From a virus: a DNA stretch of 64,000 nt. Positions 24,142-59,380 of this stretch are shown here, piece after piece (the stretch's first letter is position 1; each line of letters starts with the position of its first letter). The stretch is from IMG/VR virus record IMGVR_UViG_3300021138_000002, positions 81,097 to 145,096 of that record, one strand, 5' to 3'. The notes beneath the pieces were generated by a model. It was not told the DNA's origin and searched no databases. It was given only the letters and a program-made list of their open reading frames with translations. The position numbers and the translations under genes are program-made.

Positions 24142-25056
24142 GTGACCGACAATCGAATTATAATCCCCAAAGTTGAATTTTATATAACCAATGTTTGTAA
24201 TCTGACCTGTCATAATTGTAATCGTTACAACAATTATGATTTCCGTGGATGGCAACGCTGGAGTGACTATGAAGAAATTTATACCGAATGGGCCAAAAAG
24301 ATAAACATCAAACACATTGTGATCCTGGGCGGAGAACCATTGTTAAATCCCACAATTTGTGAGTGGATTGATGGGATTACCCAATTGTGGGGCCACTCGT
24401 GTCAAATAATAACCAATGGTACATATCTTAACAAAACACCTGGGTTGTACGATCTAGTTAAAAGACACAAGGCCTGGATACAGGTCAGCATACACAATGT
24501 CAACGATCTAGATCGACATTTTCAAAATATTCGAGAGTTTCTTCAAGAGCCAATTGATTTTTTTCAAGACAAAACACAACTAGATGCGCACGGACACTCG
24601 GTTACCAACGGATCTGATTATTTGTTTAAAGATCGTAACGGTGCCCAGGTGGCTGCATCTGTACAAGATTCTTTCTATAACATATCCATCTACCCCAACG
24701 AACGCAATCAGCTGACCTTGCACAACAACGATCCTGAACTGGCACATCAAGATTGTGGATTTGTAAAATATAAAAACTATCATTTCATTCGCGGCAAGTT
24801 GTACAAATGCGGACCAGTGGCATTGTTGCCCGAATTTGATCTGCAATATCCATTGGCCATTTCAGACGCAGATCGACAGCTCTTAAACAGTTATCAACCC
24901 TTGGGCATTGATGAGTTTGAACAACATGGACGAGATTTTTTAAATAACATAGATCGTGTGATACCGCAGTGTAAATTCTGTCCTACCAAATTTGCCAACC
25001 AGCAAATTTTTGCCTTGAACAAAGCCGCAGGGGCCCACAGCTCCTTCAAGAATTAA
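24142..25056 (+). CDS. Radical SAM protein, type A (N-terminal CxxxCxxC, C-terminal Cys cluster)
   Basis: CNLTCHNC, LGGEPLL, TNG; C..LYKC..CKFCP. Confidence 0.9.
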   Translation: MTDNRIIIPKVEFYITNVCNLTCHNCNRYNNYDFRGWQRWSDYEEIYTEWAKKINIKHIVILGGEPLLNPTICEWIDGITQLWGHSCQIITNGTYLNKTPGLYDLVKRHKAWIQVSIHNVNDLDRHFQNIREFLQEPIDFFQDKTQLDAHGHSVTNGSDYLFKDRNGAQVAASVQDSFYNISIYPNERNQLTLHNNDPELAHQDCGFVKYKNYHFIRGKLYKCGPVALLPEFDLQYPLAISDADRQLLNSYQPLGIDEFEQHGRDFLNNIDRVIPQCKFCPTKFANQQIFALNKAAGAHSSFKN

Positions 25057-25076
25057 ACGCCCGGTAAATATAGCAC

Positions 25077-26045
25077 ATGATTGATCCTTTAGTCCAGTGG
25101 CCCGACGAATCACCCGATGACCCACGATTATACGTTCCAAACATCGAAGTTTACATAACAAATGTTTGTAATATAGCCTGTAAAAATTGCAATCGATTTA
25201 ACAATTACAATTTTAAAGGTCAACAACTATGGAACGACTACCGAGACATTTACACAGCATGGTCTAAAAAAATCCGACTACAGAAAATCACCATCTTGGG
25301 CGGCGAACCGTTGATGAATCCCACAGTGGTAGATTGGATAAGAGGATTCAATCAGCTGTGGGACAAACGTGTGCAACTGCTGACCAACGGCACACGGTTA
25401 ACCGTGGTACCAGGATTGTACGAAGTCATGCAGGAATATCGTCGAGATGGTGGTAACTGGATAGGTGTGAGCGTACACAACCCACTGGAACTGGATCGTT
25501 ACTTTGAAGAGATACATAAATTTTTAAAAGGTCCTGTCAAAATGTGGAAAGGCAAAGACAGCCTGAATGAGTTTGGCGGCAGTGCCACCTGGGGAGCCGA
25601 TTATGCGTTTGAAGATCGTAACGGAGTACGTGTACATGTGTGGCTGTACGACAGTTTTTACAATGTGGGAATACATCAAAATTTGTCAGGAAACCTGACC
25701 TTGTGCAACAGCGATCCCGAACGGGCACATGACGTTTGTGGCATGGTCAAGTTCAAAAACTATCATTTTGTTCGCGGCAAATTGTACAAATGTGGACCGG
25801 TGGCATTATTTCCTGAATTTGATCAACAACATGCCCTGGCTATTTCAGATGAGGATCGCCAGTTGCTGAACAGTTATCAACCGTTGTCGGTTGATGAATT
25901 TGACCAAAGAGGACGAGATTTTTGGAACAATATCGATCGTGTAATACCGCAATGTAAGTTTTGCCCAACAAAATTCATAAATGAACCATTGTTTGCGACC
26001 AATAAAATAAAAGGTTCTACGACTGTATTTAAAATTACACAATAA
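25077..26045 (+). CDS. Radical SAM protein, type A, tandem paralogue of 24142
   Basis: CNIACKNC, LGGEPLM; the C-terminal third is nearly identical to 24142. Confidence 0.9.
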   Translation: MIDPLVQWPDESPDDPRLYVPNIEVYITNVCNIACKNCNRFNNYNFKGQQLWNDYRDIYTAWSKKIRLQKITILGGEPLMNPTVVDWIRGFNQLWDKRVQLLTNGTRLTVVPGLYEVMQEYRRDGGNWIGVSVHNPLELDRYFEEIHKFLKGPVKMWKGKDSLNEFGGSATWGADYAFEDRNGVRVHVWLYDSFYNVGIHQNLSGNLTLCNSDPERAHDVCGMVKFKNYHFVRGKLYKCGPVALFPEFDQQHALAISDEDRQLLNSYQPLSVDEFDQRGRDFWNNIDRVIPQCKFCPTKFINEPLFATNKIKGSTTVFKITQ

Positions 26046-26066
26046 ATATACAACAGGAGCAATCAA

Positions 26067-26837
26067 ATGGCTATCCAATCAGAATCAAGTTTAGAAACAC
26101 TGAAACAAGACCTATTCAAATATGTGCAGTATCAGCTGGGCAGTCAGATCATTGATCTTGAACTGGATGCCGAGCACTATGAAGCAGCCTATAGAAACAC
26201 AGTGGGAACCTATCGTCAGCGGGCACAAAACGCCTACGAAGAAAGTTACACTTTTATGGAACTGGTTACCAATGTCAACATCTATGAATTACCTCAAGAA
26301 GTGTACAGTGTGCGTCAGATCTTCCGCAGAACGTTCGGCGACAGCACTGGCCCATTTGCCAGCAATTTTGACCCGTTTAGCCAAGCATCTCTGAACGTTT
26401 ACTTGATGAATTTCAACGTGGCTGGTGGACTTGCTACCTACGATTTTTACAGCCAATATGTGGAATTGGCTGGACGCATGTTTGGTGCCTACATGAACTA
26501 CACATTCAATCCGGTTACCAAAAAACTACAGTTGATCCGTGACCCCAAAGGCACCGGCGAAGCTGTTCTACTTTGGACCTACAACTACAAGCCCGAATTC
26601 AACATGCTGAGCGATCCTTTGATCAGTCAGTGGATGCGCAACTACATGGTAGGGAACTGCAAGCTCATAATCGGCGAAGCAAGAGAAAAATTCTCAACAA
26701 TCGCCGGTCCACAGGGAGGTGGTACATTAAACGGCACAGCCATGAAAGCTGAAGGCCTGGCAATCATGCAACAGGGCATTGAAGACCTCAAGAACTATGT
26801 GGATGGCAGCCAGCCGTTGGCATGGGTCATCGGCTAA
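26067..26837 (+). CDS. gp13: Neck protein (T4 gp13-like)
   Basis: QLG..IDLELD, FNPVTKKL, GEAREKF..GP.GG.TLNG..MK.EG. Confidence 0.85.
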   Translation: MAIQSESSLETLKQDLFKYVQYQLGSQIIDLELDAEHYEAAYRNTVGTYRQRAQNAYEESYTFMELVTNVNIYELPQEVYSVRQIFRRTFGDSTGPFASNFDPFSQASLNVYLMNFNVAGGLATYDFYSQYVELAGRMFGAYMNYTFNPVTKKLQLIRDPKGTGEAVLLWTYNYKPEFNMLSDPLISQWMRNYMVGNCKLIIGEAREKFSTIAGPQGGGTLNGTAMKAEGLAIMQQGIEDLKNYVDGSQPLAWVIG

Positions 26838-26881
26838 CCTTTTTCCAACACTTTTTTCAAGTTTTCTGTTATACTAGCTGT

Positions 26882-27406
26882 ATGGCAGACTTAATGATCG
26901 ATCTAGAAGGTTTGGGCACTGGTCCTGACACCACAATACTCACTATCGCAGCTCAGAGTTTTGATCCATTGGGGTCAGGCTATCACGAGTCAAAATACTA
27001 TGCCAGAATAACTCTGGAAAGCCAGGAAAACCGTAGCATACAGCAAAGCACCATTGACTGGTGGGCCACCCAGCCTGCAACCGCCAGAGACGAAGCGTTC
27101 AATGAAGAAGGTCGTATACCGTTAGATCAAGCCTTGGATGAACTGGGTCGACTGATCTGGCACAGCAAACGAGTATGGGCCCAAGGTCCCACCTATGACA
27201 TGAATATACTAGAGCACGCCTACAAAAGTTACGGCAAACCCATACCATGGCAGTTTTATGCGGTACGTGATAGCAGAACAGTATTCAGCTTGTGGCCCGG
27301 TCTGCCAAAACCGCCCGTCAGTCACCATGCATTGGAAGATTGTCGCAGGCAGATCGCGTTACTACAAACCACTTTGAAACATTTTAACATAAGGGAATTG
27401 GCATGA
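26882..27406 (+). CDS. DEDDh 3'-5' exonuclease (Rv2179c/DexA-like; start probably 26882)
   Basis: MIDLEGL, TIDWW..Q, WAQG..YD, RDSRT, HHALEDC. Confidence 0.85.
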   Translation: MADLMIDLEGLGTGPDTTILTIAAQSFDPLGSGYHESKYYARITLESQENRSIQQSTIDWWATQPATARDEAFNEEGRIPLDQALDELGRLIWHSKRVWAQGPTYDMNILEHAYKSYGKPIPWQFYAVRDSRTVFSLWPGLPKPPVSHHALEDCRRQIALLQTTLKHFNIRELA

Positions 27407-28056
27407 TTATTGGCCTTGTTGGTTTAATAGGTTCTGGCAAAGACACCATTGCAGATTATCTGGTAAACATACACGAGTTTAAACGTGAAAGTTTTGCCAA
27501 CACTCTCAAAGATGCTGTTGCCCATATATTTGGCTGGGATCGTGAACTGTTAGAAGGTCGTACCAAACAAAGTCGCGCCTGGAGAGAACAACGCGATCAA
27601 TGGTGGAGCGACCGTCTAAAAATGGACATAACACCCAGGTGGGTCTTACAGTATTGGGGCACAGAAGTGGCCCGCCGCAACTTCCATGACGATATCTGGA
27701 TTGCCAGTCTAGAAAACAAACTGCGTAAAATAACCGATGATGTGGTAATCAGTGACTGTAGATTTCCTAACGAAATCGCCGCTATCAAATCAGCCGGTGG
27801 ACGAGTGATACGTGTTGTCCGCGGACCCGAACCCGAATGGTACGAATTTGCCCGAATGGTCAATCAAGGACCTGATCATAATTTACAGTGGAGTTGGGCC
27901 AAAACCCAATTGTCAAAATTCACGATCCATGCCAGCGAAACTGCCTGGATTGGCACTGCTTTCGACGCCGTGGTTGAAAACAATTCCAGCCTTGATGCGT
28001 TATATCAACAGATCACAAGTCTGGTTCAAGATCTCCCGCCCGCCACGGCAAGTTAG
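27403..28056 (+). CDS. Deoxynucleoside monophosphate kinase (T4 gp1-like)
   Basis: IIGLVGLIGSGKDT, SFA..LKD, TPRWVLQYWGTE, SDCRFPNE, HASE. Confidence 0.9.
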   Translation: MIIGLVGLIGSGKDTIADYLVNIHEFKRESFANTLKDAVAHIFGWDRELLEGRTKQSRAWREQRDQWWSDRLKMDITPRWVLQYWGTEVARRNFHDDIWIASLENKLRKITDDVVISDCRFPNEIAAIKSAGGRVIRVVRGPEPEWYEFARMVNQGPDHNLQWSWAKTQLSKFTIHASETAWIGTAFDAVVENNSSLDALYQQITSLVQDLPPATAS

Positions 28057-28360: not shown

Positions 28361-28455
28361 GGTGTATTTACAACAAACCTTTGCAAAGGGAATACAACCA
28401 CCTGTCTTTTTGTCTCCGGCCATAAATATCATTACTAGAAAAAAGGATTTTTGAT

Positions 28456-32115: not shown

Positions 32116-32120
32116 TGAAT

Positions 32121-32149
32121 CAGGACAAAATGGCCAAAATTTTGTCCTG
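32121..32149. other. Perfect 11-bp hairpin between sheath and tube genes, with no U tract
   Basis: CAGGACAAAAT-ggccaaa-ATTTTGTCCTG. Confidence 0.6.
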
Positions 32150-32191
32150 GCTCAGTGCCATAAATAACAGTAACTAGGAGATTAAAGAAAA

Positions 32192-32824: not shown

Positions 32825-32837
32825 CTGATCGCTCGCT

Positions 32838-39807: not shown

Positions 39808-40200
39808 GTGCGAGCCCGAGAATTTGTAAGTGAGGCAAGATTCAGTCAACGACCTAAGGCCAAGATGCATCACGACCATGCCCAGGTCCAAAAAGGTGTG
39901 CACCTAGCTCGAGATCCTGGTGGATACGATCGTATCTATCATTTGAATCGTCTCATGATGGCCACAGCCTGTGCCGACGGCAAGGGGACCGGCAAGATAC
40001 CCAATGTTGACAGCAGCAGTTGGTACGAAAAATACAACAGCATACATCCTTATACCGAAGAAGAACACAACATGGTCCGGCAGGCCATGGCCACTGTGCC
40101 CACCGACGGTGGAGAAATTGTCGACGATCATCGCAGTCTTGAACCCGATCATGTGCATCGAATCAGTCCTGTAAAAGGATTTCAGGGCTATCCCAGATGA
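39808..40200 (+). CDS. MRAREF-family protein, copy 1
   Basis: MRAREFVSE...SLEP..HRISPVKGFQGYPR. Confidence 0.75.
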   Translation: MRAREFVSEARFSQRPKAKMHHDHAQVQKGVHLARDPGGYDRIYHLNRLMMATACADGKGTGKIPNVDSSSWYEKYNSIHPYTEEEHNMVRQAMATVPTDGGEIVDDHRSLEPDHVHRISPVKGFQGYPR

Positions 40201-40565
40201 GAGCTCGCGAGTTCGTGATCGAAGGGCGACGAAGCAAGATAGATCACAGCTTCCAACACGCCAATCCTGGTGCCGTTATTCCCGGCAATCGAGACAGATT
40301 CTATGATGGACGCACTTACGATAGTTATCGTATGGCCATGTTGAGCGGTATGCACCCAGATGATCTAGAAAAAGCCGATGTGCATTCCTGGGCCTCAAAC
40401 ATGCCCATGTACAATGCCTACACCCAAGCCGAACACGATAAAATTACTAGAGCCATGAAAAAAATGGGACACACTGTAAAACACATGGCCTATCAAGGTA
40501 GTCAAGAGCCACCAGACACACACAGGGTTAGCCCAGTAAACCAATTTACAGGATACAGTCGATGA
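40197..40565 (+). CDS. MRAREF-family protein, copy 2
   Basis: MRAREFVIE...SQEP..HRVSPVNQFTGYSR; ATGA overlap with copy 1. Confidence 0.75.
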   Translation: MRAREFVIEGRRSKIDHSFQHANPGAVIPGNRDRFYDGRTYDSYRMAMLSGMHPDDLEKADVHSWASNMPMYNAYTQAEHDKITRAMKKMGHTVKHMAYQGSQEPPDTHRVSPVNQFTGYSR

Positions 40566-40948
40566 GAGCTCGAGAATTTGTTACCGAAGGTCAACAAACA
40601 CGTCTGCCGGCCTATACTAGAGATCCGCTGGAGCATGCTTATTTTTTACCAGGCATCCGTAACAACGACAGTTATCGTACCTACAGATTGGGCGCGGCCA
40701 TAGCTCGAGCTCGGGCTGAAAAAGATGGCGGTGCTGATAATTTTCCAGAATGGCACCCTGAAAGTGCTTTTGGCGAAAATTCGGTAGTAATAGGTCCTGA
40801 AGTAGATGTCAAAGATATTGTGACCCGTGCATTAGAAATGACCGGATATGGTGGAGGCCTGGCCAGTGTGGGAAGCCACAAGAGCCACGAACCCGAAAGC
40901 GTAAATCAAACCAGTCCTATGCGACCATTCAAAGGATATGCAAGATAA
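40562..40948 (+). CDS. MRAREF-family protein, copy 3
   Basis: MRAREFVTE...SHEP..NQTSPMRPFKGYAR; ATGA overlap with copy 2. Confidence 0.75.
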   Translation: MRAREFVTEGQQTRLPAYTRDPLEHAYFLPGIRNNDSYRTYRLGAAIARARAEKDGGADNFPEWHPESAFGENSVVIGPEVDVKDIVTRALEMTGYGGGLASVGSHKSHEPESVNQTSPMRPFKGYAR

Positions 40949-41851: not shown

Positions 41852-42565
41852 ATGAAAAAAATTATCGTATTAGCCGCACTGCTGTTTGCATCAGTTGCAG
41901 CACAGGCACAAATCAATGCCCAGTGCCCACAGTTTACTGTGAACGGCACACCACAATATCAAGCTCACCCAGGTGATCAAGAACTTTGTAAAACCAACTA
42001 TGCTGTGATACATCGTTGTGATGTCAAGGCACCTGTGGCCGTATTTGAACACCTGACTGTGGCCGCTATGTCAGGTCCGGCCAAACGCAAAGACAACTTC
42101 AGACCCGATCCCGGTGTGGCTGCACAGTGCCAGGCACAGTTGGCCGACTATGCCACGGCCGGCAACATCTACGATCGCGGACACATGGCTCCAGCTGGCA
42201 ACAACACACAGAACGATGCCATCATGAGCGAAAGTTTTTTCCTGTCAAACATGGTACCACAAGTGGCCAACAACAACAGAGGTATCTGGAAACAGTTGGA
42301 AACTTGGGAACGTGATTGGGCCAGCAAGGGCGGCGATTTTTATATCATTTCGGGCGGCATTTACAACCCTGGACACAAAACCATCGGTAACGGTGTAGGA
42401 GTTCCTGATGCACTCTACAAGATCATCATCAACAAACAGTCTGGACAAGTGATGGCCTATATGATGCCTAATACTGCACTGCCAGTAGCAGATTTGCCCA
42501 AGTATCAAACCACTATGACTGCTGTAGAACAAGCCACCGGCATGCGTTTTAATTTAGGCAAGTAA
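41852..42565 (+). CDS. DNA/RNA non-specific endonuclease (NucA/EndoG family) with Sec signal peptide
   Basis: DRGHMAP, SFFLSNMVPQ..NRGIW..LE, VP..YK; signal peptide MKKIIVLAALLFASVAAQA. Confidence 0.92.
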   Translation: MKKIIVLAALLFASVAAQAQINAQCPQFTVNGTPQYQAHPGDQELCKTNYAVIHRCDVKAPVAVFEHLTVAAMSGPAKRKDNFRPDPGVAAQCQAQLADYATAGNIYDRGHMAPAGNNTQNDAIMSESFFLSNMVPQVANNNRGIWKQLETWERDWASKGGDFYIISGGIYNPGHKTIGNGVGVPDALYKIIINKQSGQVMAYMMPNTALPVADLPKYQTTMTAVEQATGMRFNLGK

Positions 42566-42588
42566 TACCTGTAGTCATAAATTACAGT

Positions 42589-43734
42589 ATGAATAAAACC
42601 TATTGTGCGGCCCCCTGGCGGGGCTTGCACATCAACCCACGTGGAGATGTCAAAACTTGCTGTGCTGGCAACCCTAACATGCTGGGCAATCTCAACAATC
42701 TGACCATTGAACAAATCTTGAATGGACCTGTGTTGCGTGAAATACAGGACACTGTGCGTCTGGGTCAATTACATGATCAATATTGTAAAAACTGTATCAA
42801 TAGAGAAACCGCTGGCGGCGATAGCGAACGAGTTTGGCACAACACAGTCAATGACAATTTCGCTATTGAGTCTGCTGGAGATTTTGAATTTCCTTCTATC
42901 ATAGACATACGTTGGAACACCACTTGCAATTTGAGTTGTAACTATTGCGATCCTAATGCCAGCTCAAAATGGGCCGGTATATTAAAGCAACCGGTAGTAT
43001 CGGGCACTCGACACTACTATGAACAGGTGTGCAACTACATCAAAAAACACTACAATCAAGTACAAGAAGTTGCCTTGGTTGGCGGCGAACCTTTGTTGTT
43101 GAAAGAAAATGAACGTTTGCTAGATGTGATTCCTGACGATTGCGTGGTCACTATTATTACCAACCTTGCCGCAGATTTGGAAAATAACGCTGTGTTCCAA
43201 AAACTGGCCAAGCGATCCAGAGTAGGATGGAGTATCAGTTTTGAAAATGTTCAAGATCGATTTGAATATGTGCGTTATGGAGCCACATGGCAAAAGCTAC
43301 TGCACAATCTTGATCTAGTGCAGGATCTCATGCGTAATCAAGGACATTGGGGAGGCATACACGCGGTCTACAACTTGTTTACTGCCACAAGGTTGCGTGA
43401 AATCAAAAACTTTAGTCAAGAACGTGGACTAACAATTAAATGGCAAAGTTTACATCATCCGAGCCTGCTAGATCCACGATCATACGGATCAGAAATAGCC
43501 GAGTTGGCCGCAAATGAAATCAAACTCATGTATGAAACCTGTCAAGTTGACGCACTGGATCAACAGTTCTTTGACACAGCCTTGACACATTATCAAAATC
43601 AAACCCAGACCAATCCAGCAACTCTGGAACAACTGGACCAATACATACAGAGATTGGAATCTGAATATCATCCTGATCAAGCCGGGCAATTTGCCGTGTG
43701 CTGGCCCGAACTAGAAAGTTTATTATGGCACTAG
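42589..43734 (+). CDS. Radical SAM protein, type B (N-terminal twitch/SPASM-like Cys cluster)
   Basis: CAAPW..CC..CKNC, then CNLSCNYC, GGEP, FEYVRYG, C-terminal WPEL. Confidence 0.9.
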   Translation: MNKTYCAAPWRGLHINPRGDVKTCCAGNPNMLGNLNNLTIEQILNGPVLREIQDTVRLGQLHDQYCKNCINRETAGGDSERVWHNTVNDNFAIESAGDFEFPSIIDIRWNTTCNLSCNYCDPNASSKWAGILKQPVVSGTRHYYEQVCNYIKKHYNQVQEVALVGGEPLLLKENERLLDVIPDDCVVTIITNLAADLENNAVFQKLAKRSRVGWSISFENVQDRFEYVRYGATWQKLLHNLDLVQDLMRNQGHWGGIHAVYNLFTATRLREIKNFSQERGLTIKWQSLHHPSLLDPRSYGSEIAELAANEIKLMYETCQVDALDQQFFDTALTHYQNQTQTNPATLEQLDQYIQRLESEYHPDQAGQFAVCWPELESLLWH

Positions 43735-48508: not shown

Positions 48509-49522
48509 ATGGCTAGCTTATCAGAAATTCGTGCCCGTTTAGCGGCATCAGAAAACAAACCCGGTACAGGTGGATCCGGTGGTGGAGATGGATCAATTTA
48601 TCCTCATTGGAATATGTCAGAAGGTGAAAGCGCCACTGTACGCTTCTTACCCGATGGTAACAGCAAAAACACATTCTTTTGGGCCGAACGACAATTACTT
48701 CGTTTGCCATTCAACGGCATCAAAGGCGAGATGGACTCAAAACAGGTCTACGTGCAAGTGCCTTGTATGGAAATGTGGCAAGAAACTTGCCCAGTGCTTA
48801 CCGAAGTACGCACTTGGTTCAAAGACAAAAGCCTAGAAGAAATGGGTCGTAAGTATTGGAAAAAACGTTCATACATTTTCCAAGGCTTTGTGCGTGACAA
48901 TCCCTTGGCCGATGATAAAACACCAGCCAACCCAATTCGTAGATTTATCATTGGACCTCAGATCTTTGCTATCATCAAAGGTGCCCTGATGGATCCAGAA
49001 TTGGAAGAATTACCAACAGACTTGATGCGTGGCTTGAATTTTACTATCAGCAAAACAGCCAAAGGTGGATTTGCTGACTACAACACTAGCAAGTGGGCTC
49101 GTAAAGAATCTGCCTTGACCGAAGCCGAACAGGCAGCCATTGCCGAACACGGCCTGTATGATCTTGGATCATTTTTGCCCAAAAAGCCAACCGAAGCCGA
49201 AATCAAGGTCATCAAAGAAATGTTTGAAGCATCGGTAGATGGTCAGAGCTATGATATCGAACGTTGGGGTGCATACTTCAGACCAGCAGGTGTAGCAGCT
49301 CCAGCCGGTGCCACACCCGCAGTAGATGATGACGCTCCGGCACCAGTGGTTAAAACACAGGCATCAGGTTATGTGGCACCAAATTCTGGTGCAGTAGCCA
49401 GCGACATCGATGAAGATGACGAACCAGCAGTGGCCACAACACCGGTAGTTGCCAAAGCACCTGCTGGTAACACCCAGGACATCTTGGCCATGATCCGGAG
49501 TCGTCAAAAAACCACTAACTAA
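48509..49522 (+). CDS. gp32: Single-stranded DNA-binding protein (T4 gp32-like)
   Basis: VRFLP, CPV, KYWKKRSY, G.ADY..S.W; acidic Ala/Pro-rich tail. Confidence 0.9.
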   Translation: MASLSEIRARLAASENKPGTGGSGGGDGSIYPHWNMSEGESATVRFLPDGNSKNTFFWAERQLLRLPFNGIKGEMDSKQVYVQVPCMEMWQETCPVLTEVRTWFKDKSLEEMGRKYWKKRSYIFQGFVRDNPLADDKTPANPIRRFIIGPQIFAIIKGALMDPELEELPTDLMRGLNFTISKTAKGGFADYNTSKWARKESALTEAEQAAIAEHGLYDLGSFLPKKPTEAEIKVIKEMFEASVDGQSYDIERWGAYFRPAGVAAPAGATPAVDDDAPAPVVKTQASGYVAPNSGAVASDIDEDDEPAVATTPVVAKAPAGNTQDILAMIRSRQKTTN

Positions 49523-50181
49523 TGTTATCGTATTTAGATCACATTATATTCCCAGACCGCTGTGAGGTAATAGAAGTTGTACCGTCACAGCGGTATGTGT
49601 ATCCAATTTTCAAAAATGGTAGATCAAGTTTATCTATCACTGCTGAAGAAAATAACTGGCGAATAAAAATAAACGATCAAATTAAAAAAATTAACAGTAT
49701 TGATGTAATTTTGAGAGATCCACAGGATAGATTGATTTCAGGAATCAATACATTCATACAGCATACGATCAGGGACAATCCTGGGCTTGATCACAGCACA
49801 GTAGAATGGTTTGCGTTAAATTATTTGTATCTAAATCGACATTATTGCCCACAATTTTTATGGTTAATAAATTTGTCAAGATATTTGAATGCAGATGCAA
49901 CATTGAATTTTTTACCAATGACAGCCGTTGATACCATTACAACTCTCAACACAAAACCAAGAGGTATTGAACCGGCGACCAACAGATTGATCACTCAAGT
50001 CGGCCAGATAAAAAACAACGAAATGTATCATCGAATAGACTGCGTGTTAGTCGGTTGCATTGGTCGATCAATGAGCTTTGATCATCTCATGCAACATATA
50101 AAAACTACCGACCCTGAGGCATATGATTATGTGGTTGGGCACGCACAAAAAATTTTAAATCCAACCTATGCATTGTCCTAG
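49522..50181 (+). CDS. Sulfotransferase-family-2-like protein
   Basis: IFKNGRSS, LRDP.DRLISG and RHYCPQ match degenerate PAPS-binding motifs. Confidence 0.5.
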   Translation: MLSYLDHIIFPDRCEVIEVVPSQRYVYPIFKNGRSSLSITAEENNWRIKINDQIKKINSIDVILRDPQDRLISGINTFIQHTIRDNPGLDHSTVEWFALNYLYLNRHYCPQFLWLINLSRYLNADATLNFLPMTAVDTITTLNTKPRGIEPATNRLITQVGQIKNNEMYHRIDCVLVGCIGRSMSFDHLMQHIKTTDPEAYDYVVGHAQKILNPTYALS

Positions 50182-51115
50182 ACTAGATCATTTTGTTAGA
50201 TTCAATCACAATGGCACAGTCAGCCGATGTGGTCACATGATCAACATACGGCAATTTGATTCGTTGGAGGACATGGACTCAAGTGACTGGCTGGCGGATA
50301 TCAAAGAACAATTTGAACAAAATCGGTGGCCCATCGAATGCACCAGATGTAAACAAACCGAAGAAATCAATCAAACAAGTATTCGACTCAACGCTATCGA
50401 ATTTGACAAAAAACAAACTCAAGAAAACTATCTAACGGTAGGAGGAGTATTGGACAATGTGTGCAACAGTGCTTGTTTGACCTGCAACGAACGGTTGAGT
50501 ACAAAAATTGGCAGTTTACGAACATTAGATTATCCTATCATTGATAACACACGGCGTTTTTGGTCTTTGCCATTGGATCGAGTGGTGCATCTGGACATCA
50601 ACGGTGGAGAGCCCAGTGCCAGCAAAAACTACAAAAATATATTGTCTAATCTTCCAGAAAATGTCAAAAGCGTCAGAGTCAATACCAATTGTTCGTTGGT
50701 AATTGCTGAACTGGAAGACATTGTGAAAAAAGGTATTGAAGTCACGGTCACAGTCAGTTTAGACGGAATTGGTCCGGTACACGATTATGTGCGTTGGCCA
50801 ATCAAATGGGATAAATTTTACAAAAATCTAATGACCTACAAGTCAATGGCATTGACCGAATTGAACACCTGGACCACAGTGAGTGCGTTAAATATCGGTG
50901 ATTTTGACAACATCCGTGCGTTTGTCAACGAACACGAGTTGTTGCACTCGTGGGCCTTGTTGAACACGCCGGATGAATTAAATGTTAAATACACAAATAC
51001 ACTGACAGAACCCTATCGTGGAGTCATTGACAATATGGTAGCAGTAGATAAAAACAATCAACAAGAACTAGATAAATTTATCAGTCAACAACATCAATTG
51101 CGAAACATCACATGA
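50168..51115 (+). CDS. Radical SAM protein, type B
   Basis: C..C..ECTRC, then CNSACLTC, NGGEP, SLDG..YVRWP. Confidence 0.88.
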   Translation: MHCPRLDHFVRFNHNGTVSRCGHMINIRQFDSLEDMDSSDWLADIKEQFEQNRWPIECTRCKQTEEINQTSIRLNAIEFDKKQTQENYLTVGGVLDNVCNSACLTCNERLSTKIGSLRTLDYPIIDNTRRFWSLPLDRVVHLDINGGEPSASKNYKNILSNLPENVKSVRVNTNCSLVIAELEDIVKKGIEVTVTVSLDGIGPVHDYVRWPIKWDKFYKNLMTYKSMALTELNTWTTVSALNIGDFDNIRAFVNEHELLHSWALLNTPDELNVKYTNTLTEPYRGVIDNMVAVDKNNQQELDKFISQQHQLRNIT

Positions 51116-51166
51116 TTTGATGTTTGCAGTATGAAAAATATTTTTTAAAAAATTAACCGGAGTATC

Positions 51167-51715
51167 ATGATGAAAATAGCCATCACTGGACACACAGCTG
51201 GAATAGGACAAGCATTAGCCAATGAATATGCCAGTGCCGGCTATGAAATTCTAGGATTGAGCAAGCGAGAAGGCAACAATATTCGCAACACTCCCAAGAT
51301 CTGTGATCAAATTGAATCTTGCGATGTTTTTGTCAACAATGCCCAAGCTGGATATTCGCAGACTGAATTGTTGTTTGAAATGGTCGATCGTTGGCAAGGT
51401 ACCAAAAAACATATCGTGGTGATCAGTACCATGATGACACAAGACCCGGTATCGGTCCTTCCAGGCCTGGGCATGGATCATTATCGTGTACAAAAAGTTG
51501 CATTGGAAGAAGCAGTCAAGCAAATACGTAACCGTCGATTGGGAGTTAGATTGACTGTAGTAAGGCCCGGAAATGTTGCGACCAGTAGCGACAAAACAGT
51601 ACCTCCGGCGGCTGATGTAACCAACTGGGCACACACTCTGATAAAATTATTTGATCTGGCAGAAACCAACAATTTGTCTATTCCAGATATTTCTCTTGGG
51701 GCATTGAACAAATGA
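51167..51715 (+). CDS. Short-chain dehydrogenase/reductase
   Basis: ITGHTAGIG, VNNA, YxxxK (YRVQK), RPG. Confidence 0.85.
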   Translation: MMKIAITGHTAGIGQALANEYASAGYEILGLSKREGNNIRNTPKICDQIESCDVFVNNAQAGYSQTELLFEMVDRWQGTKKHIVVISTMMTQDPVSVLPGLGMDHYRVQKVALEEAVKQIRNRRLGVRLTVVRPGNVATSSDKTVPPAADVTNWAHTLIKLFDLAETNNLSIPDISLGALNK

Positions 51716-52878
51716 CACCCAAGGATATTTTGACCAATCGACATTTTTGTCCGTTGCCCTGGACTGGATTGATGTACAACTTTGATGGAACTGTAAAAAA
51801 TTGTATTCGCAGTGATAGAGCCACAGGAACACTGGGCAATATTAAAAATACACCTATCAAAGAAATAATGTCAGGTCCTGACAACATGAGCAAGCAAACC
51901 AACATGACAGCAAACAAACCGGCTGCCGGTTGTCATACCTGTTATGATCTGGAACGTGGCAAAGAAGGGTTTGATATTATTAGCGACCGTATTTTTTACA
52001 TACGCGAATTCAAACGTACACCAGTTGATACCTATCAGATTGGTAATTTTGATTTGCAAACCATTGATGTACGCTGGACCAATTTGTGCAATTTTGCCTG
52101 TGTGTATTGTAATGCCAGTTTTAGCAGCCGTTGGGCTGATGAATTAAATTTCAAAATAGAGACACCCTCGGCAACTCAGCTGGCCGATTTTAAAAAATAT
52201 ATCCATGATCATGCTGGTCAATTGAAACATGTGTATCTAGCCGGTGGTGAACCCTTGTTGATGAAAGAAAATCTAGAACTGCTTGCACAACTGGATCCCG
52301 ACGTCAATCTGAGGATAAACACCAATCTCAGTAGGGTTGATACCGGTGTGTTTGATGCTGTATGCAAATTTAAAAATGTACATTGGACTGTGAGTGTGGA
52401 AACTCAAGAAGAAGAATTTGAATACATCAGATTTGGAGGCCGTTGGCAAGATTTTTTGACGAATTTACAAACAATCAATCAATTGGGTCACAAAATAAGT
52501 TTCAACATGCTTTGGTTTTTGCTAAATTACAACAGCGTGTTTGACTGTGTGGACTATTTAAAAGGTTTGGGATTTCATAACAACAGTTTTGTAATCGGGG
52601 CATTACTCACTCCAGAATACCTAAATGTTAGGCATTTGCCTGATCATGTGTTAAACTTGTTAAAGACGAAATTAGAATCACGTATTGCTGAAAATCCGGG
52701 ATATCTACTAGAAGATAGTTATCGAAACATGTTGCACTATATAACACAACCAATTGACCAAGATCTTTCCGGATCGTTTGACCAATTGGCCGTGATGGAT
52801 CAAAGACGTGGTGTTGACAGCAGCAAGATTTTTACAGAATTATACAAATTGAAAGAGGAAAACAATCATGGCCAATAA
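51712..52878 (+). CDS. Radical SAM protein, type B
   Basis: CPLPW..C..GCHTC, then CNFACVYC, AGGEP, FEYIRFG, DQRRG..FTEL. Confidence 0.9.
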   Translation: MTPKDILTNRHFCPLPWTGLMYNFDGTVKNCIRSDRATGTLGNIKNTPIKEIMSGPDNMSKQTNMTANKPAAGCHTCYDLERGKEGFDIISDRIFYIREFKRTPVDTYQIGNFDLQTIDVRWTNLCNFACVYCNASFSSRWADELNFKIETPSATQLADFKKYIHDHAGQLKHVYLAGGEPLLMKENLELLAQLDPDVNLRINTNLSRVDTGVFDAVCKFKNVHWTVSVETQEEEFEYIRFGGRWQDFLTNLQTINQLGHKISFNMLWFLLNYNSVFDCVDYLKGLGFHNNSFVIGALLTPEYLNVRHLPDHVLNLLKTKLESRIAENPGYLLEDSYRNMLHYITQPIDQDLSGSFDQLAVMDQRRGVDSSKIFTELYKLKEENNHGQ

Positions 52879-53932: not shown

Positions 53933-53934
53933 CA

Positions 53935-54192: not shown

Positions 54193-55448
54193 TGACCAAC
54201 AAATATTTTCCTATAACAACAGAAACTGCATGCAGATTAAAATGGAGTTGGAGTACGCTTTATCTTAATTCGGGCATAACTGGATCATGTCATAGATCCA
54301 GTCTTTCAACGGTTGATGTTGATAATTTTGAAAACTTTCACAACACCGATAAAAAAATACAGTCCAGAGAAGCCATGCTTGCAGGACAATGGCCAGGAGA
54401 TGGGTGCGAATATTGCAAAACGATTGAAGAAGCAGGTGGTATGAGTGATCGCTTGTTTCAAAATCAAGTACCTGATGTATACCCAAGAATTTTAGACTCA
54501 AATCCTCAAGAAACCCGAACAGATCCGGCTGTGCTTGAAGTATTTTTTTCAAACACTTGCAATTTAAAGTGTGTTTATTGTACCGCTAAAGCAAGCTCAT
54601 CGATACAGGCCGAAAATAAAAAATTTGGAGGAGCCATAATTGAGCGAGCCAATTTTGAATATCAAGACAATCAATATAAAAAATTAGCTCCAAAATTTTG
54701 GCAATGGTTTGAGAAAAATTCACAAAAGGTACAAAGATTACAAGTACTAGGGGGCGAACCATTTCTACAAAACGAAGTCAACACATTGTTGACATATTTT
54801 AACAACAATCCGCATCCAGATTTGGAATTTAATGTTGTGACCAATTTGAGTTTGCCAACCAATGTGATTGAAAAAACGTTGAGATTGCTCAGCGAACTGG
54901 TTGACTCAAAAAAAGTAAAAAGGGTTGACATTCAAGTCAGCATTGACTGTTGGGGTCCTGCACAAGAATACATTCGTAATGGACTACAGTTAACTCAATT
55001 TGAAAAAAATCTAAAGTTGTTGATTGGTTTAAAAAATCTTCGAATTGGATTGTTATCCACTGTGACATCATTGTCGATACCGAACATGATGGACTTATGT
55101 ATCAAATACCAGGAATGGAATCAATTACAAACAATCTTCTGGTATAATAATTTGGTACTGCCCTACGATGACAGTGTGTTTGATCCAACAATTTTTGATT
55201 ATAGTGTGTTTGAATCTTATTTTCTTGATCTTGATAAATTGTTGCCCGACCACACATGGGATGATAAAATTACCAAAGAAAAATTTGTTGGTATCAGGAA
55301 AAAATTAGAAAAAAATTGTCAAACCAACATCGACAGACAAAAAGAATTATTCAGATATTTGACCATGAATGATCAACGAAGAAATAGCGATTGGCGCATA
55401 ACATTTCCCTGGCTAGAAAAGGTATTTAAAGAAAATCATGTGGTATAG
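54192..55448 (+). CDS. Radical SAM protein, type B
   Basis: ACRLKW..SCH..GCEYC, then CNLKCVYC, LGGEPF, QEYIRNG, DQRR..FPWL. Confidence 0.9.
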   Translation: MTNKYFPITTETACRLKWSWSTLYLNSGITGSCHRSSLSTVDVDNFENFHNTDKKIQSREAMLAGQWPGDGCEYCKTIEEAGGMSDRLFQNQVPDVYPRILDSNPQETRTDPAVLEVFFSNTCNLKCVYCTAKASSSIQAENKKFGGAIIERANFEYQDNQYKKLAPKFWQWFEKNSQKVQRLQVLGGEPFLQNEVNTLLTYFNNNPHPDLEFNVVTNLSLPTNVIEKTLRLLSELVDSKKVKRVDIQVSIDCWGPAQEYIRNGLQLTQFEKNLKLLIGLKNLRIGLLSTVTSLSIPNMMDLCIKYQEWNQLQTIFWYNNLVLPYDDSVFDPTIFDYSVFESYFLDLDKLLPDHTWDDKITKEKFVGIRKKLEKNCQTNIDRQKELFRYLTMNDQRRNSDWRITFPWLEKVFKENHVV

Positions 55449-55890
55449 TCGAGTTGTAGCAGATCTAGGTAACATTCCTGATTTCATCAATTACTACGAA
55501 CAAGAATTGGCTGATGCCAAACGCGAATGTCAAGTGGGCGGCCTGGTCGAAAAAAACATCACCACTCTTCCGGGCGTGACCGAACACAGATTCAATCAAC
55601 TGCAAGAAATCGAAGCAGTATTGAACTATCTCAACATACAGTTGAGAAAGATCCGTCGGCGCCACTTCCAAAAATATCTGGAAGGTTATGCACGAGCACT
55701 AACTAGTAGAGATGCTGAGAAATATGTGGACGGTGAAGATGAGGTTGTGGATTTTGAAACCTTGATCAATGAAGTGGCACTGTTACGCAACAAATTTTTG
55801 GGCATAATCAAAGCATTTGAAAGTAAAAATTTCATGCTCGGACACATAGTGCGTTTGCGAGCAGCCGGTATGGAGGATATACAAGTATGA
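55438..55890 (+). CDS. uvsY: Recombination mediator UvsY-like
   Basis: KYLEGY.RAL.SRDAEKYVDGE..K.F.LG.I..LR.AG; near uvsX. Confidence 0.8.
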   Translation: MWYSRVVADLGNIPDFINYYEQELADAKRECQVGGLVEKNITTLPGVTEHRFNQLQEIEAVLNYLNIQLRKIRRRHFQKYLEGYARALTSRDAEKYVDGEDEVVDFETLINEVALLRNKFLGIIKAFESKNFMLGHIVRLRAAGMEDIQV

Positions 55891-56648
55891 CATTTTCAAG
55901 TCCACAACAGAGTCATCAACACAGCCTATCTGTGTTGAATCAGCTGTACGAATACGATGATTTTATGGCCAGCATCAACACCTTGGTGGATCTTGGTTGC
56001 GGAAAAGGCCTGGATCTCGAATGGTGGGCTACCCGAACCACCCGAGACGATGTTCCTGAGCCACTAAACATCAAGTGTGTGGGTGTAGACCATGCCGATC
56101 AACTGCCCATGGCAGATGTGTATGCCAACGTGGATTACTATCAAAACGATTTTGAACTGCCGTTGAGATTGTGCCATGACAGCCTGCACTACGATGTGTT
56201 ATGGTGCCATGACAGTTTCCAGTACAGTGTGAATCCCTTGGCGACCCTGACCAATTGGTGGCAGGCCGCCAATGAAGGCGCCATGCTGTATATCGGCCTT
56301 CCACAGACCACCAATCTCTATCGAGGACGACAGGATTTCACTCAGGCCCCTGGTTGCTACTATCATCACACCATGGTCAGTCTCATACACATGCTGGCCG
56401 TGACCGGATGGGATTGCCGTGCTGGATTTTTCAAAAAAGACATACAGGATCCCTGGATACATGCCGTGGTATACAAAAGTGCCGTCGAACCACAGGATCC
56501 TAAAACCGCCACTTGGTACCGCTTGGCCGAGCTGGGTCTTATCCCCGAAAGTGCTGAGCGTAGTGTACAGGCACACGGGTATCTTAGACAGCAGGATCTG
56601 GTGGTAGCCTGGCTGGATAAAAGTTTACAATACATGGGACATCAATAA
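55887..56648 (+). CDS. Class I SAM-dependent methyltransferase
   Basis: VDLGCGKG, GVD, YDVLWCHDSFQY. Confidence 0.8.
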   Translation: MTFSSPQQSHQHSLSVLNQLYEYDDFMASINTLVDLGCGKGLDLEWWATRTTRDDVPEPLNIKCVGVDHADQLPMADVYANVDYYQNDFELPLRLCHDSLHYDVLWCHDSFQYSVNPLATLTNWWQAANEGAMLYIGLPQTTNLYRGRQDFTQAPGCYYHHTMVSLIHMLAVTGWDCRAGFFKKDIQDPWIHAVVYKSAVEPQDPKTATWYRLAELGLIPESAERSVQAHGYLRQQDLVVAWLDKSLQYMGHQ

Positions 56649-56968
56649 TGCAAACACAACGTCAATGGGGATATTATCGTGTGATACACGAAGCTGCAGG
56701 AATGAAAGTCAAAGAACTGGTAGTGGAACCCGGTCAAAGCCTCAGCATGCAACGTCATTTCAAACGCAACGAATTTTGGGTGGTGCAACAAGGTGCCTGC
56801 GTGGTCAATCTAGAGTCTGAAACCGTGACCTTACAAACCCACGAAATAATGGCCATTCCGGTAAACGAGTGGCATCAACTGACCAACCCGCACGAAACTG
56901 CCTGCCATATCGTGGAAATACAGTATGGCGAAGCCTGCGTAGAAGAAGATATAGAACGAAAAGGTTGA
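56648..56968 (+). CDS. Cupin resembling the C-terminal domain of mannose-6-phosphate isomerase type II
   Basis: R.WG.Y, VKEL.V.PGQSLSMQRH..R.EFW, WHQL.N, VEIQYG..EEDIER. Confidence 0.85.
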   Translation: MQTQRQWGYYRVIHEAAGMKVKELVVEPGQSLSMQRHFKRNEFWVVQQGACVVNLESETVTLQTHEIMAIPVNEWHQLTNPHETACHIVEIQYGEACVEEDIERKG

Positions 56969-56993
56969 CCAAAAACTCCAGTTTATATACAAT
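56965..56993 (+). promoter_or_regulatory. Sigma70-type early promoter TTGACC-17-TACAAT
   Basis: 17-bp spacer; same TTGACCAAAAA context as 22642 and 22927. Confidence 0.75.
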
Positions 56994-57079
56994 AGCATTA
57001 TGAAATCGGGTGCTGTAGACCTTGTATTTACGGAGTGTTGTGTTTATACAACACCAAAAAAAACTGTAAAAATCAGTGG

Positions 57080-57108
57080 TTGACCCAAAATACCCATTTT
57101 GTTATAAT
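57080..57108 (+). promoter_or_regulatory. Sigma70-type early promoter TTGACC-17-TATAAT (extended -10)
   Basis: Near consensus; upstream of SD AGGAG and GTG 57139. Confidence 0.85.
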
Positions 57109-57138
57109 ATTAGTATAGTAATTAAACAGGAGCTGAAT

Positions 57139-58158
57139 GTGAGTAAAGTCAATATCAAAAACGGAATATACCGTAATCAACCAGTAAAAAATGTAGCCTT
57201 TACCTTGGTAAAAGGTTTACAGACTGGCGCCAAGGGCAGTTTTGTCACAGTAGATAGCGAAGGCTATTTTGGGCCAGATTTTGATGTGGTTCGTATCAAA
57301 GTTGATTCTATCGAAGATGTAGAATTTGTGGGCGGAGACACTGAAACAGCCACACCTGCTGTCAAAACAGTGGCACCTGTGGAAACTGATGAAGAAGTCA
57401 TGGCTCGTATTGGCGAGCGTTTTGATATCTTGGATCAAATGACTAAAGCTACAATCGCCGGTGATGTCCGTGCCATGATCGTGGTTGGGCCTCCTGGTGT
57501 GGGCAAGAGTTACGGCGTAGAAAAACAACTGGAACAGTCAGGACTTTTTGACAAGTTGGCTGGACGCAGGATCAAGTACGAAATCATCAAAGGTGCCATG
57601 ACTCCGATTGGCCTGTACTGTACCTTGTACAAGAATTCCGATCCGTGTAACGTGTTGGTATTCGATGACTGCGACAGTGTATTCCAGGACGATGTCAGCT
57701 TGAACATTCTCAAAGCGGCCCTGGATTCTGGCAAGAAGCGTAGGATCTACTGGAATAGTGACAGCTCTATGTTGCGTCGTGAAGGTGTTCCTGACTGTTT
57801 TGACTTCAAGGGTGCCTGTATCTTTATCACCAACTTACAGTTCCAGAATTTAAAGAGCAAGAAATTGCAAGACCACTTGGAAGCCTTACAGAGTCGTTGT
57901 CACTTTTTGGATCTTACACTTAATACACAGCGTGATAGATTCTTGCGTATCAAACAGATCTTCCGCAAAGGTGACCTGTTCCAGGACTATGATTTTACTC
58001 CAGAACAGGGTGAAGAGATTTTAGATTACATGGATGCCAACAAAGATCGTTTGAGAGAGATGAGCTTGCGTATGGCACTCAAGATCGCAGACTTGACCAA
58101 GGTCAGTTCGACCAATTGGAAGGCCCTGGCAGTAAGCACATGTATGAAGAATTCGTAA
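57139..58158 (+). CDS. AAA+ ATPase (start probably GTG 57139)
   Basis: GPPGVGKS, VLVFDDCD, NILKAALD, IFITN, SRC. Confidence 0.85.
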   Translation: MSKVNIKNGIYRNQPVKNVAFTLVKGLQTGAKGSFVTVDSEGYFGPDFDVVRIKVDSIEDVEFVGGDTETATPAVKTVAPVETDEEVMARIGERFDILDQMTKATIAGDVRAMIVVGPPGVGKSYGVEKQLEQSGLFDKLAGRRIKYEIIKGAMTPIGLYCTLYKNSDPCNVLVFDDCDSVFQDDVSLNILKAALDSGKKRRIYWNSDSSMLRREGVPDCFDFKGACIFITNLQFQNLKSKKLQDHLEALQSRCHFLDLTLNTQRDRFLRIKQIFRKGDLFQDYDFTPEQGEEILDYMDANKDRLREMSLRMALKIADLTKVSSTNWKALAVSTCMKNS

Positions 58159-58170
58159 ACGGTAGCTCCT

Positions 58171-58225
58171 GGGTTGATTCAACAATCAACCCATTTTACA
58201 CAGGCACTTAGGTGCCTGTCTTTTT
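58171..58225 (+). terminator. Two tandem hairpins; the second is an intrinsic terminator
   Basis: GGGTTGATT-caac-AATCAACCC, then ACAGGCAC-ttag-GTGCCTGT-CTTTTT. Confidence 0.8.
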
Positions 58226-58258
58226 GACTTTTTGTTAATAAATATGCTATAGTTATAT

Positions 58259-59380
58259 ATGACTTTTTGCTACTCTCCTTGGACCAATATTGACATCAGT
58301 CCCATGGGAGAAATAACTCCCTGCTGTAAATTCCAAAAACAATATTATACCGAACAATTCAATATACAAACACATTCTCTTGTTGAGTATGTTGACAGCA
58401 ATTTGATCAACGGTATCAAGCAACAATTCCAACAAGGGAGTTGGCCAGTTGGTTGCGAACGATGCAGGATTGAAGAATCACACGGCATTGAAAGCAAACG
58501 ACAGCTAGATTACGTCAGATGGAAAGATCATTATGATTCGTACGATATTAATAGTGGCCGATTTCTTACCACAAGTGTTGCATTTGGTAATACTTGCAAT
58601 CTTAAATGCATAACATGTGGTCCACATGCATCAAGTCGCTGGCAAAAAGAATATCGTGAGCTGTACGGCAAAGACATTCCGCATTTTAAATTTTACAAAA
58701 AAAACTTTGTTCAAGACTTTGTAGCACAGGCACCAGATATTGTTCACTTGGATATTCCCGGCGGCGAACCGTTTTTGAGTGGTATCGACGAACAACAAGC
58801 TCTATTGGAACACTATGTATCAAATGGCCAGGCAAAACATATAACATTACATTACACAACCAACACTCAGATATTTCCGGATTCCGTCTGGTGGGATTTG
58901 TGGGCACACTTCAAAGAAGTAGACATTCAAATGAGTATTGATGGTATTGGGGACAGATACGAATATATCAGGTATCCAGCCAGCTGGGTAACTTTGGTTG
59001 ATCATGTAAAGAAATATCTACAAATTCAACAATCAAATATCAGACTGAGTGTCAGTCATACCGTTAGTGCCTATAACATCTATTATCTTGATGAATTTTT
59101 TGATTGGTGTTATACTATAGGCTTGCCACGCCCTTGGCTGGGTAGAGCTCACAATCCAAAATACCTGCGTCCCGGGGTATGGAGTCGTTCTGCTCGTCAA
59201 GTTATTGTGGATCATTTAAAACATAGCCAGTATTCTGATGTATTGGCCTGGGCCAATTTGATGTCCTTGACGGATGAGTCTGAATTTTTCGATGAGTTTA
59301 GAACCAAATTAACAGCACACGATCAGTACAGAGGTACCAATTTTAAAAATATTTTTCCAGAGTTAGCCAATCACATATGA
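58259..59380 (+). CDS. Radical SAM protein, type B
   Basis: CYSPW..PCC..GCERC, then CNLKCITC, GGEPF, SIDG..EYIRYP, DQYRG..FPEL. Own promoter (TTGACT..TATAGT and TAAATA). Confidence 0.9.
   Translation: MTFCYSPWTNIDISPMGEITPCCKFQKQYYTEQFNIQTHSLVEYVDSNLINGIKQQFQQGSWPVGCERCRIEESHGIESKRQLDYVRWKDHYDSYDINSGRFLTTSVAFGNTCNLKCITCGPHASSRWQKEYRELYGKDIPHFKFYKKNFVQDFVAQAPDIVHLDIPGGEPFLSGIDEQQALLEHYVSNGQAKHITLHYTTNTQIFPDSVWWDLWAHFKEVDIQMSIDGIGDRYEYIRYPASWVTLVDHVKKYLQIQQSNIRLSVSHTVSAYNIYYLDEFFDWCYTIGLPRPWLGRAHNPKYLRPGVWSRSARQVIVDHLKHSQYSDVLAWANLMSLTDESEFFDEFRTKLTAHDQYRGTNFKNIFPELANHI

Follow-up and report, generated by a model that had tools for sequence, protein, structure and literature searches.

Radical-SAM genes as interchangeable cargo between core genes of a freshwater jumbo phage clade

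The 64,000-nucleotide window analyzed here spans bases 81,097-145,096 of virus record IMGVR_UViG_3300021138_000002 and carries seven genes for radical S-adenosylmethionine (rSAM) enzymes among conserved virion and replication genes. All seven open reading frames (ORFs) are intact and each encodes the CxxxCxxC and GGE(P) motifs, in agreement with the original prediction made from the DNA letters. The core neighbors are also as predicted and consist of a gp13-like adaptor at 26067 (phrog_211), TerL at 43698, UvsX at 52868, UvsY at 55438, and a UvsW-like helicase at 59377. Window genes are named by their first position (Table 1); positions prefixed C1 are those of the whole record.

The record is linear and 145,096 bp long, with a CheckV completeness of 42%. 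In TerL it shares 51% identity with Pseudomonas jumbo phage PA5oct and 47-52% with Phosso and Atu_ph07. Relatives with direct terminal repeats have lengths of 344-347 kb, and the sequencing runs with near-identical DNA are freshwater or lake-water metagenomes from more than a dozen studies, with no RNA run among those listed. On this evidence, the record is a fragment (~42%) of an uncultured, abundant freshwater jumbo phage of ~345 kb that belongs to the PA5oct-like group of the T4 superfamily. The cultured phages in INPHARED contain no DNA-level relative of the window and no homolog of its main rSAM family (N_Twi, below) besides a weak 27% match in Ralstonia phage RsoM2USA. A single-protein search of genome contigs returned only contigs from metagenome-assembled genomes (MAGs) that look like either mis-binned phage or an expansion of TPR fusions. 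Two contigs of a MAG labelled Haliscomenobacter sp. (L337, 183 kb; L338, 148 kb) carry the five-gene N_Twi set found in this phage at 73% identity. They resemble phage sequences that ended up in the bin of a Bacteroidota MAG and provide a weak lead to the host.

The seven genes and their family

Motif positions and alignments bear out the predicted split into two proteins with a C-terminal Cys cluster (24142 and 25077) and five with an N-terminal one. The reversed domain order of the five, with the twitch domain N-terminal to the core, is real and is already catalogued as NCBIfam NF033640 (N_Twi_rSAM, here N_Twi), a 398-position model with a curated cutoff of 170 bits. Proteins 42589, 51712, 54192, and 58259 score above this cutoff (Table 1) with matches that cover model positions ~1-397. 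Protein 50168 falls below it at 131.3 bits and is a member of a conserved, shorter subfamily of 291-337 aa. For 24142 and 25077, the matches are confined to the generic radical-SAM core. The PF04055 gathering score is passed by five of the seven; 50168 and 58259 are recognized by NCBIfam and PHROG models only.

Residues C4, C66, C69, C113, C117, C120, and G168-G169-E170 are invariant in an alignment of the record's 13 N_Twi paralogs and in a second alignment that includes orthologs, and at least 90% of 31 aligned sequences retain C23. The N-terminal spacing CX12GX4C...CX2C is the canonical twitch/SPASM signature and is followed by the C113/C117/C120 core motif. The CX13GX4C...CX2C signature of 24142 and 25077 is located at the C terminus. 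The auxiliary-cluster domain is predicted from the Cys signature and from PF13186 matches of 23.8-40.3 bits. Judged by sequence, the seven genes encode functional rSAM enzymes, each with a SAM-binding [4Fe-4S] site (CX3CX2C) and one predicted twitch-type cluster site.

N_Twi_rSAM is a large, phage-dominated, catalogued family without a characterized member, and membership assigns no function. The ESM Atlas clusters nearest to 54192 are 97-100% viral, and 58259 has more than 1,200 homologs, the best 120 of which are 59-81% identical. A literature search on N-terminal twitch domains found nothing, and a search on jumbo phages and radical SAM found no relevant paper. Models of better-known rSAM families were tried and rejected. 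NrdG models gave 17-28 bits (cutoff 126-131), QueE 22-38 bits (cutoff 260), and MoaA 15-41 bits (cutoff 231-325). The viperin models (NF038283, TIGR04278, and PADLOC pVip) gave 19-45 bits (cutoff 180) over the first ~100-115 model positions only. Clustering with NrdG, QueE, or MoaA was one of the contrary outcomes named by the original prediction; all of the proteins fail these curated hidden Markov model (HMM) cutoffs. The predicted lack of an nrdD partner also holds, with PF13597 absent from the record and also missing in three relatives of 93-100% completeness.

Table 1. Radical-SAM genes, cassette partners, and a promoter-like element in the window
Feature	Coordinates	Strand	Context and basis
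rSAM, C-terminal twitch, 304 aa	24142..25056	+	First of tandem pair between p22908 and gp13-like adaptor; PF04055 48.7 bits; CNLTCHNC, GGEP, C-terminal CX13GX4C...CKFC; GC 0.402
Second rSAM, C-terminal twitch, 322 aa	25077..26045	+	58% identical to 24142
N_Twi rSAM, 381 aa	42589..43734	+	Between Endonuclease_NS gene and TerL; NF033640 195.6 bits
219-aa gene (p49522), first of four-gene cassette	49522..50181	+	No Pfam match; always with the cassette in relatives
Short N_Twi-like rSAM, 315 aa, second in cassette	50168..51115	+	Orthologs form one clade
Short SDR/NAD-binding protein, 182 aa, third in cassette	51167..51715	+	PF00106 and PF01370, N terminus only
N_Twi rSAM, 388 aa, last in cassette	51712..52878	+	NF033640 238.1 bits; overlaps uvsX by 11 nt
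N_Twi rSAM, 418 aa	54192..55448	+	Between 85-aa gene and uvsY; NF033640 237.9 bits; GC 0.352
N_Twi rSAM, 373 aa	58259..59380	+	NF033640 298.6 bits; overlaps uvsW-like helicase gene by 4 nt
Late-promoter-like GGTAAATAT	24128..24137	+	Ends 4 nt before the 24142 start

Occupancy, junctions, and lineages of the slots

Window proteins were mapped onto up to 80 IMG/VR loci fetched around each of UvsX, TerL, UvsW, and the gp13-like protein. The loci encode proteins 75-97% identical to those of the window and are metagenomic contigs chosen by similarity, with near-duplicates included. All seven sites are variably occupied. The p22908-gp13 slot is empty (33-45 nt gap) in 46 of 65 loci, including the closest relatives at 96-97% gp13 identity; one rSAM copy (44-71% identical) is present in 17, 2 fall in neither class, and the tandem pair of the window is present in 0/65 sampled relatives. 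An rSAM gene lies directly upstream of TerL in 28/62 loci and one gene away in 16/62, and none is found among the last three genes in 18/62. The Endonuclease_NS gene at 41852 is present in relatives with or without a neighboring rSAM gene.

The slot between the SSB-like p48509 and uvsX is empty in 17/57 loci, where the SSB-like gene abuts uvsX (69-86 nt). The four-gene cassette of p49522, rSAM, SDR, and rSAM occupies it in 9-10 of 57, and other cargo fills the remaining loci. Copies of the SDR that are 45-82% identical by tblastn lie in the same cassette of relatives. Between uvsX and uvsY, 38/70 loci have the 85-aa gene alone, 31/70 have an rSAM gene, and 1/70 falls in neither class; the 85-aa gene upstream of 54192 is conserved irrespective of rSAM presence. 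The p57076-uvsW slot is empty in 13/57 loci and holds an rSAM gene in 7/57, with unrelated cargo in most others. The 45-kb relative G001 keeps 50168, the SDR, 51712, and 58259 and lacks 54192. G006, a relative of 152 kb, shows collinearity over the entire window, with core proteins in the same order and 50-88% identical, and lacks all seven rSAM genes, the SDR, and p49522. Because uvsX, uvsY, uvsW, and terL directly adjoin the preceding core gene in many relatives, no functional partnership is indicated between these genes and the rSAM genes beside them.

Two loci (L082 and L091) have a sole 216-220-aa ORF with CxxxCxxC in the uvsX-uvsY slot that may be a truncated remnant of rSAM cargo. A further inter-core slot lies past the end of the window in L006 (18363-19493) and in an ENA contig of P0047 (64-65% identity), where an rSAM gene sits between a Toprim primase and a DnaB-like helicase gene and overlaps both. 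Between p56648-like and p57076-like genes, G001 (8.8-16.1 kb; L016) and L006 (86-3689) carry a 7-8 kb island that is absent in the window; the L006 island encodes methyltransferases, a CTP-transferase/mannose-phosphate-isomerase-like protein, and GT8- and GT25-like glycosyltransferases. Just upstream of a 295-aa gene and the Endonuclease_NS gene, the window contains three tandem paralogous genes at 39808-40948 (122-130 aa, 27-31% identical).

Four of the rSAM genes overlap the start of the next core gene, as predicted. The 51712/uvsX and 58259/uvsW overlaps are in Table 1, the 54192/uvsY overlap is 11 nt, and the 42589/TerL overlap is 37 nt, provided that its GTG start is genuine. Gene 54192 is inserted seamlessly, with its ATG overlapping the stop codon before it (TAATG) and its own stop inside uvsY codons 1-4; the first four uvsY codons are identical in the empty allele. 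The ATGA coupling of 58259 to uvsW is kept in L006 and one ENA contig. No boundary repeats are shared around the 16 rSAM genes of the record besides the short promoter-like GGTAAATAT, and hence there are no att-like or transposon-like ends.

A T4-late-like motif, [AG]TAAATA, forms a promoter-like element before 24142, 25077, 42589, and 58259. The original prediction of four promoters 4-6 nt before the start codon holds for the first three of these genes (4, 6, and 5 nt, respectively) and fails for 58259 (14 nt). Structural genes have this motif too, at 18-30 nt upstream, and an AGGA-like Shine-Dalgarno sequence lies in the interval. At 4-7 nt before a start it occurs 9 times, compared with ~0.2 occurrences expected from its genome-wide frequency. 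These close placements include window positions 24128-24141, 25063-25076, and 42576-42588 and the starts at C1:1052, 3514, 8839, 46135, and 115946. The close spacing could mean that late mRNAs are leaderless in this phage clade. The empty allele of the gp13 site carries a single [AG]TAAATA motif and the window has three, one per gene. This pattern fits promoter-plus-ORF units but proves no mechanism.

The count of seven is correct for the window, but the record total is higher, with 16 rSAM genes in 145 kb: 13 N_Twi, 2 C-terminal twitch, and 1 SPASM-like. Besides the seven in the window, five N_Twi genes cluster at C1:13.7-23.1 kb, and four rSAM genes at C1:55.9-63.8 kb are interleaved with the genes for a metallophosphatase that is gp47/Mre11-like by position and domain and an SMC/AAA protein that is gp46/Rad50-like. 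The record's N_Twi paralogs are only 19-36% identical to one another, which indicates an old, diversified family. Complete relatives with terminal repeats have 16 and 12 N_Twi genes, and the collinear 152-kb G006 has none. Three near-complete relatives encode two A-type Fe-S carriers each (PF01521): G002 (G002:C1:19519-19815 and 291785-292087), G003 (G003:C1:163920-164222 and 248639-248941), and G004 (G004:C1:32929-33231 and 111073-111378). None was found within the 42% of this genome in the record. Two carriers per complete relative are consistent with a heavy load of Fe-S enzymes during infection.

In a maximum-likelihood tree of 62 N_Twi proteins (LG+G4, quick search), the deep paralog lineages among the uvsX-uvsY cargo number at least three. 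A 17-row clade with an SH-aLRT of 100 contains 15 copies from this slot, window 54192, and C1:58472 from the gp47|gp46 slot. A second clade (SH-aLRT 100) contains 13 uvsX-uvsY copies, and one long-branch copy groups with C1:62485, a placement flagged as unsure. The lineage can differ between phages whose UvsX proteins are 95% identical (L019 versus L020 and L021). Upstream of TerL, the copy in L099 (TerL 86%) is 73% identical to 42589 and the copy in L100 (TerL 85%) is only 34% identical. Each rSAM gene of the four-gene cassette is monophyletic, which shows that the cassette moves or is lost as a unit. Variable sites, mixed paralogs per slot, and one lineage spread over two slots support the predicted expanded, portable enzyme family well.

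The 11 dispersed rSAM copies have GC contents of 0.35-0.435, the five cluster copies 0.44-0.465, and the gene mean is 0.456; all 16 differ from the other genes of the record (Mann-Whitney p = 3e-5). The lowest is 54192, with GC 0.352 and GC3 0.315 versus gene means of 0.456 and 0.455. The GC of G006 is 0.40, so lower-GC relatives exist and could have been donors. Tested orthologous pairs have nonsynonymous differences (pN) of 0.12-0.30 versus synonymous differences (pS) of 0.65-0.83, with pN 0.12-0.14 versus pS 0.65-0.72 for 51712; dS is saturated in all comparisons, and dN/dS is an upper-level indication only. The dispersed copies are under strong purifying selection. A pN far below pS together with retention of all catalytic residues indicates that the rSAM genes are functional and not decaying passengers.

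Candidate substrates and alternative explanations

The main sugar-related cluster of the record (C1:2.5-23 kb) encodes an NDP-sugar epimerase/dehydratase, a DegT aminotransferase, a NodU/TobZ-type carbamoyltransferase, a GDSL protein, and the five clustered N_Twi proteins. The non-rSAM slot cargo of relatives is partly homologous to cluster genes C1:7727, 8839, 11948, and 12690. The shared cargo families are a family with a GT10-like motif, an SGNH protein, and the C1:12690 family, which occurs in both the uvsX and the uvsW slots of relatives. Three paralogs of a virus-only family (family X; C1:7727-8809, 15047-16015, and 20520-21719) are interleaved with the clustered rSAM genes, and their homologs are slot cargo in relatives. 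The alignment consensus of family X contains an "ET...TEK" stretch, which we take to resemble the motif of GT10 fucosyltransferases. Family X may therefore be a set of GT10-like transferases, a weak lead. The SDR inside the window cassette is a further element of sugar context. The slots and the sugar cluster thus share part of one gene pool, which indirectly favors glycan or glycoconjugate tailoring.

The original prediction proposed a dispersed system that would modify virion proteins, glycans, or DNA. We infer from gene context that the dispersed rSAM copies are interchangeable tailoring enzymes that act on a glycan or glycoconjugate, with a probability of about one half. The seven genes are optional cargo in hypervariable slots between conserved core genes and not partners of the adjoining genes. 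In related phages these slots are empty, filled by a different rSAM paralog, or filled by other genes. Hydrogen abstraction by the 5'-deoxyadenosyl radical would target a sugar or glycoconjugate that is related to what the main cluster produces, and that product would be diversified from strain to strain by swapped enzymes, to the presumed benefit of the phage. A broader scheme is more tentative. Here N_Twi rSAM genes together with GT10-like, SGNH, and C1:12690-family cargo would form an exchangeable tailoring toolkit that is shuffled between genomes and slots, and a different decoration by radical chemistry would follow from each complement, on a glycan, glycoconjugate, or DNA adduct made by the phage.

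Several observations weigh against glycan tailoring. The substrate is assigned from gene context only, because no NF033640 member has a known reaction. The AF2 model of 58259 (pLDDT 86.7) neighbors SkfB, CteB, and anSME as much as BlsE, viperin, and DesII, all at TM ~0.4; the predicted fold indicates a SPASM/twitch-type radical-SAM enzyme and nothing more specific. The family X model (C1:7727) has a pLDDT of 57 and an Atlas score of 0.80. Foldseek finds nothing for it at E <= 0.001 (E > 0.02), and nearly all of the weak matches are GT-B glycosyltransferases. Pfam analysis of eight other slot-cargo genes gave one match, an AMP-binding enzyme, and left the rest without a family, and for many of the cargo genes in the uvsW slot the record contains no homolog. 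The occupancy counts come from similarity-chosen metagenomic contigs with near-duplicates. A 2.9-Mb MAG labelled Elusimicrobia has 60 NF033640 matches, at least 53 above the cutoff and many in tandem arrays. The five arrayed copies analyzed with Pfam (543-1078 aa; L341 = G008:C22:3001-22701, and L342) combine a long N-terminal TPR array with the twitch and radical-SAM domains. TPR arrays usually bind proteins, and the fusion suggests protein substrates in the Elusimicrobia lineage.

The same fusions in a bacterial MAG argue for protein or peptide maturases, a somewhat unlikely alternative in which the paralogs install a radical modification (thioether, C-C crosslink, epimerization, or formylglycine-like oxidation) on a virion or host protein and their turnover tracks changing targets. 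SkfB, CteB, anSME, and SuiB are the top structural matches, SPASM/twitch enzymes are chiefly peptide or protein modifiers (PMC11002830), and four of the seven genes have late-promoter-like motifs ahead of them, as structural genes do. The structural matches are nevertheless at the level of the generic core (TM ~0.4), and the conserved five-gene N_Twi set sits among sugar-nucleotide enzymes. A precursor for a ribosomally made, post-translationally modified peptide (RiPP) would be expected nearby, but no obvious precursor peptide, RRE-type Pfam match, or small conserved ORF travelling with the rSAM genes was noticed beside the seven, although no dedicated small-ORF search was made. The 85-aa neighbor of 54192 is conserved with or without the rSAM gene. 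Modification of phage DNA or nucleotides, as a hypermodified base or its sugar or a viperin-like product that evades host defenses, would explain both the position among replication and packaging genes and the rapid turnover. The genes adjoin terL, uvsX, uvsY, uvsW, gp46, and gp47, and the primase and DnaB genes in L006. T-even phages decorate their DNA with sugars, and this phage has its own sugar-nucleotide cluster. This adjacency is not conserved, however, and the core genes abut in many relatives. The matches to viperin models are partial and N-terminal, and the viperin, QueE, and NrdG scores are far under their cutoffs and reflect the generic core only. Complete relatives lack NrdD, and partner genes for base modification were not found, though no systematic search was made. 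DNA modification is accordingly judged improbable.

Positions between core genes, seamless insertions, low GC, and presence or absence among close relatives are what selfish or near-neutral mobile genes in the T4 homing-endonuclease niche, of no benefit to the phage, would display. This origin is very unlikely because the seven show no nuclease domain such as GIY-YIG, HNH, or LAGLIDADG (Pfam, NCBIfam, and PHROG) and no shared boundary repeats were found beyond the short promoter-like motif. The catalytic Cys and GGE residues are all kept, pN is far under pS, and orthologs at 59-81% identity span more than 100 protein clusters. Housekeeping activases or cofactor enzymes (NrdG, QueE, or MoaA) with partners elsewhere in the genome would account for the weak N-terminal similarity to these models, but this explanation is effectively refuted by HMM scores of 15-41 bits where the cutoffs are 126-325. 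Instead, four genes pass the full-length NF033640 model, complete relatives lack NrdD, and 12-16 copies per genome are incompatible with a single housekeeping role.

Relation to known systems and significance

The window enzymes share a partial TIM-barrel core and an auxiliary Fe-S domain with CX9-15GX4C with anSME (4K36-39), SkfB (6EFN), CteB (5WGG), BtrN, and BlsE (7VOB), which are their best Foldseek matches. Identity to solved SPASM/twitch structures is 10-19% with TM ~0.4, and the auxiliary domain is C-terminal in the known enzymes, whereas five of the seven have it at the N terminus. Of these five, four match NF033640 over its whole length, with CX12GX4C...CX2C, CX3CX2C, and GGE all present. 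Compared with this family as catalogued, the genes here are phage-borne, highly expanded, and behave as swappable cargo, and 50168 is under the cutoff.

A marine T4-like viral genome has 12 radical-SAM genes together with Fe-S carrier genes (Nishimura 2017, PMC5332604), and radical-SAM cassettes are the variable element between two host-recognition clusters of pelagimyophages (Zaragoza-Solas 2020, PMC7029224). These reports mention the rSAM genes in passing, without family assignment, slot-by-slot occupancy, or lineage analysis. They concern aquatic T4-like phages; the phage described here belongs to the PA5oct-like group and is a freshwater jumbo phage of ~345 kb. The slots resemble the homing-endonuclease and plasticity slots of T4 in their inter-core positions, presence or absence among close relatives, and seamless junctions. 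They differ in cargo, which lacks a nuclease domain and consists of a conserved enzyme under purifying selection, with no evidence of homing found. The new observation is that rSAM genes behave as interchangeable cargo between the core genes of an abundant jumbo phage clade.

Radical-SAM enzymes perform difficult, oxygen-independent chemistry. Related phages of this clade differ in their enzyme toolkit through gain, loss, and swap of cargo between core genes. This suggests a trait of large aquatic phages that serves an arms race or niche adaptation, and the near-identical backbones with and without each cassette are natural test pairs for finding the substrate. Should it prove to be a glycan or a DNA decoration, these genes would represent a new way for phages to diversify and could supply new enzyme reactions. 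If the cargo is an exchangeable toolkit, it would be a phage counterpart of the tailoring diversity of O-antigens and secondary metabolites, generated by an enzyme family with new chemistry.

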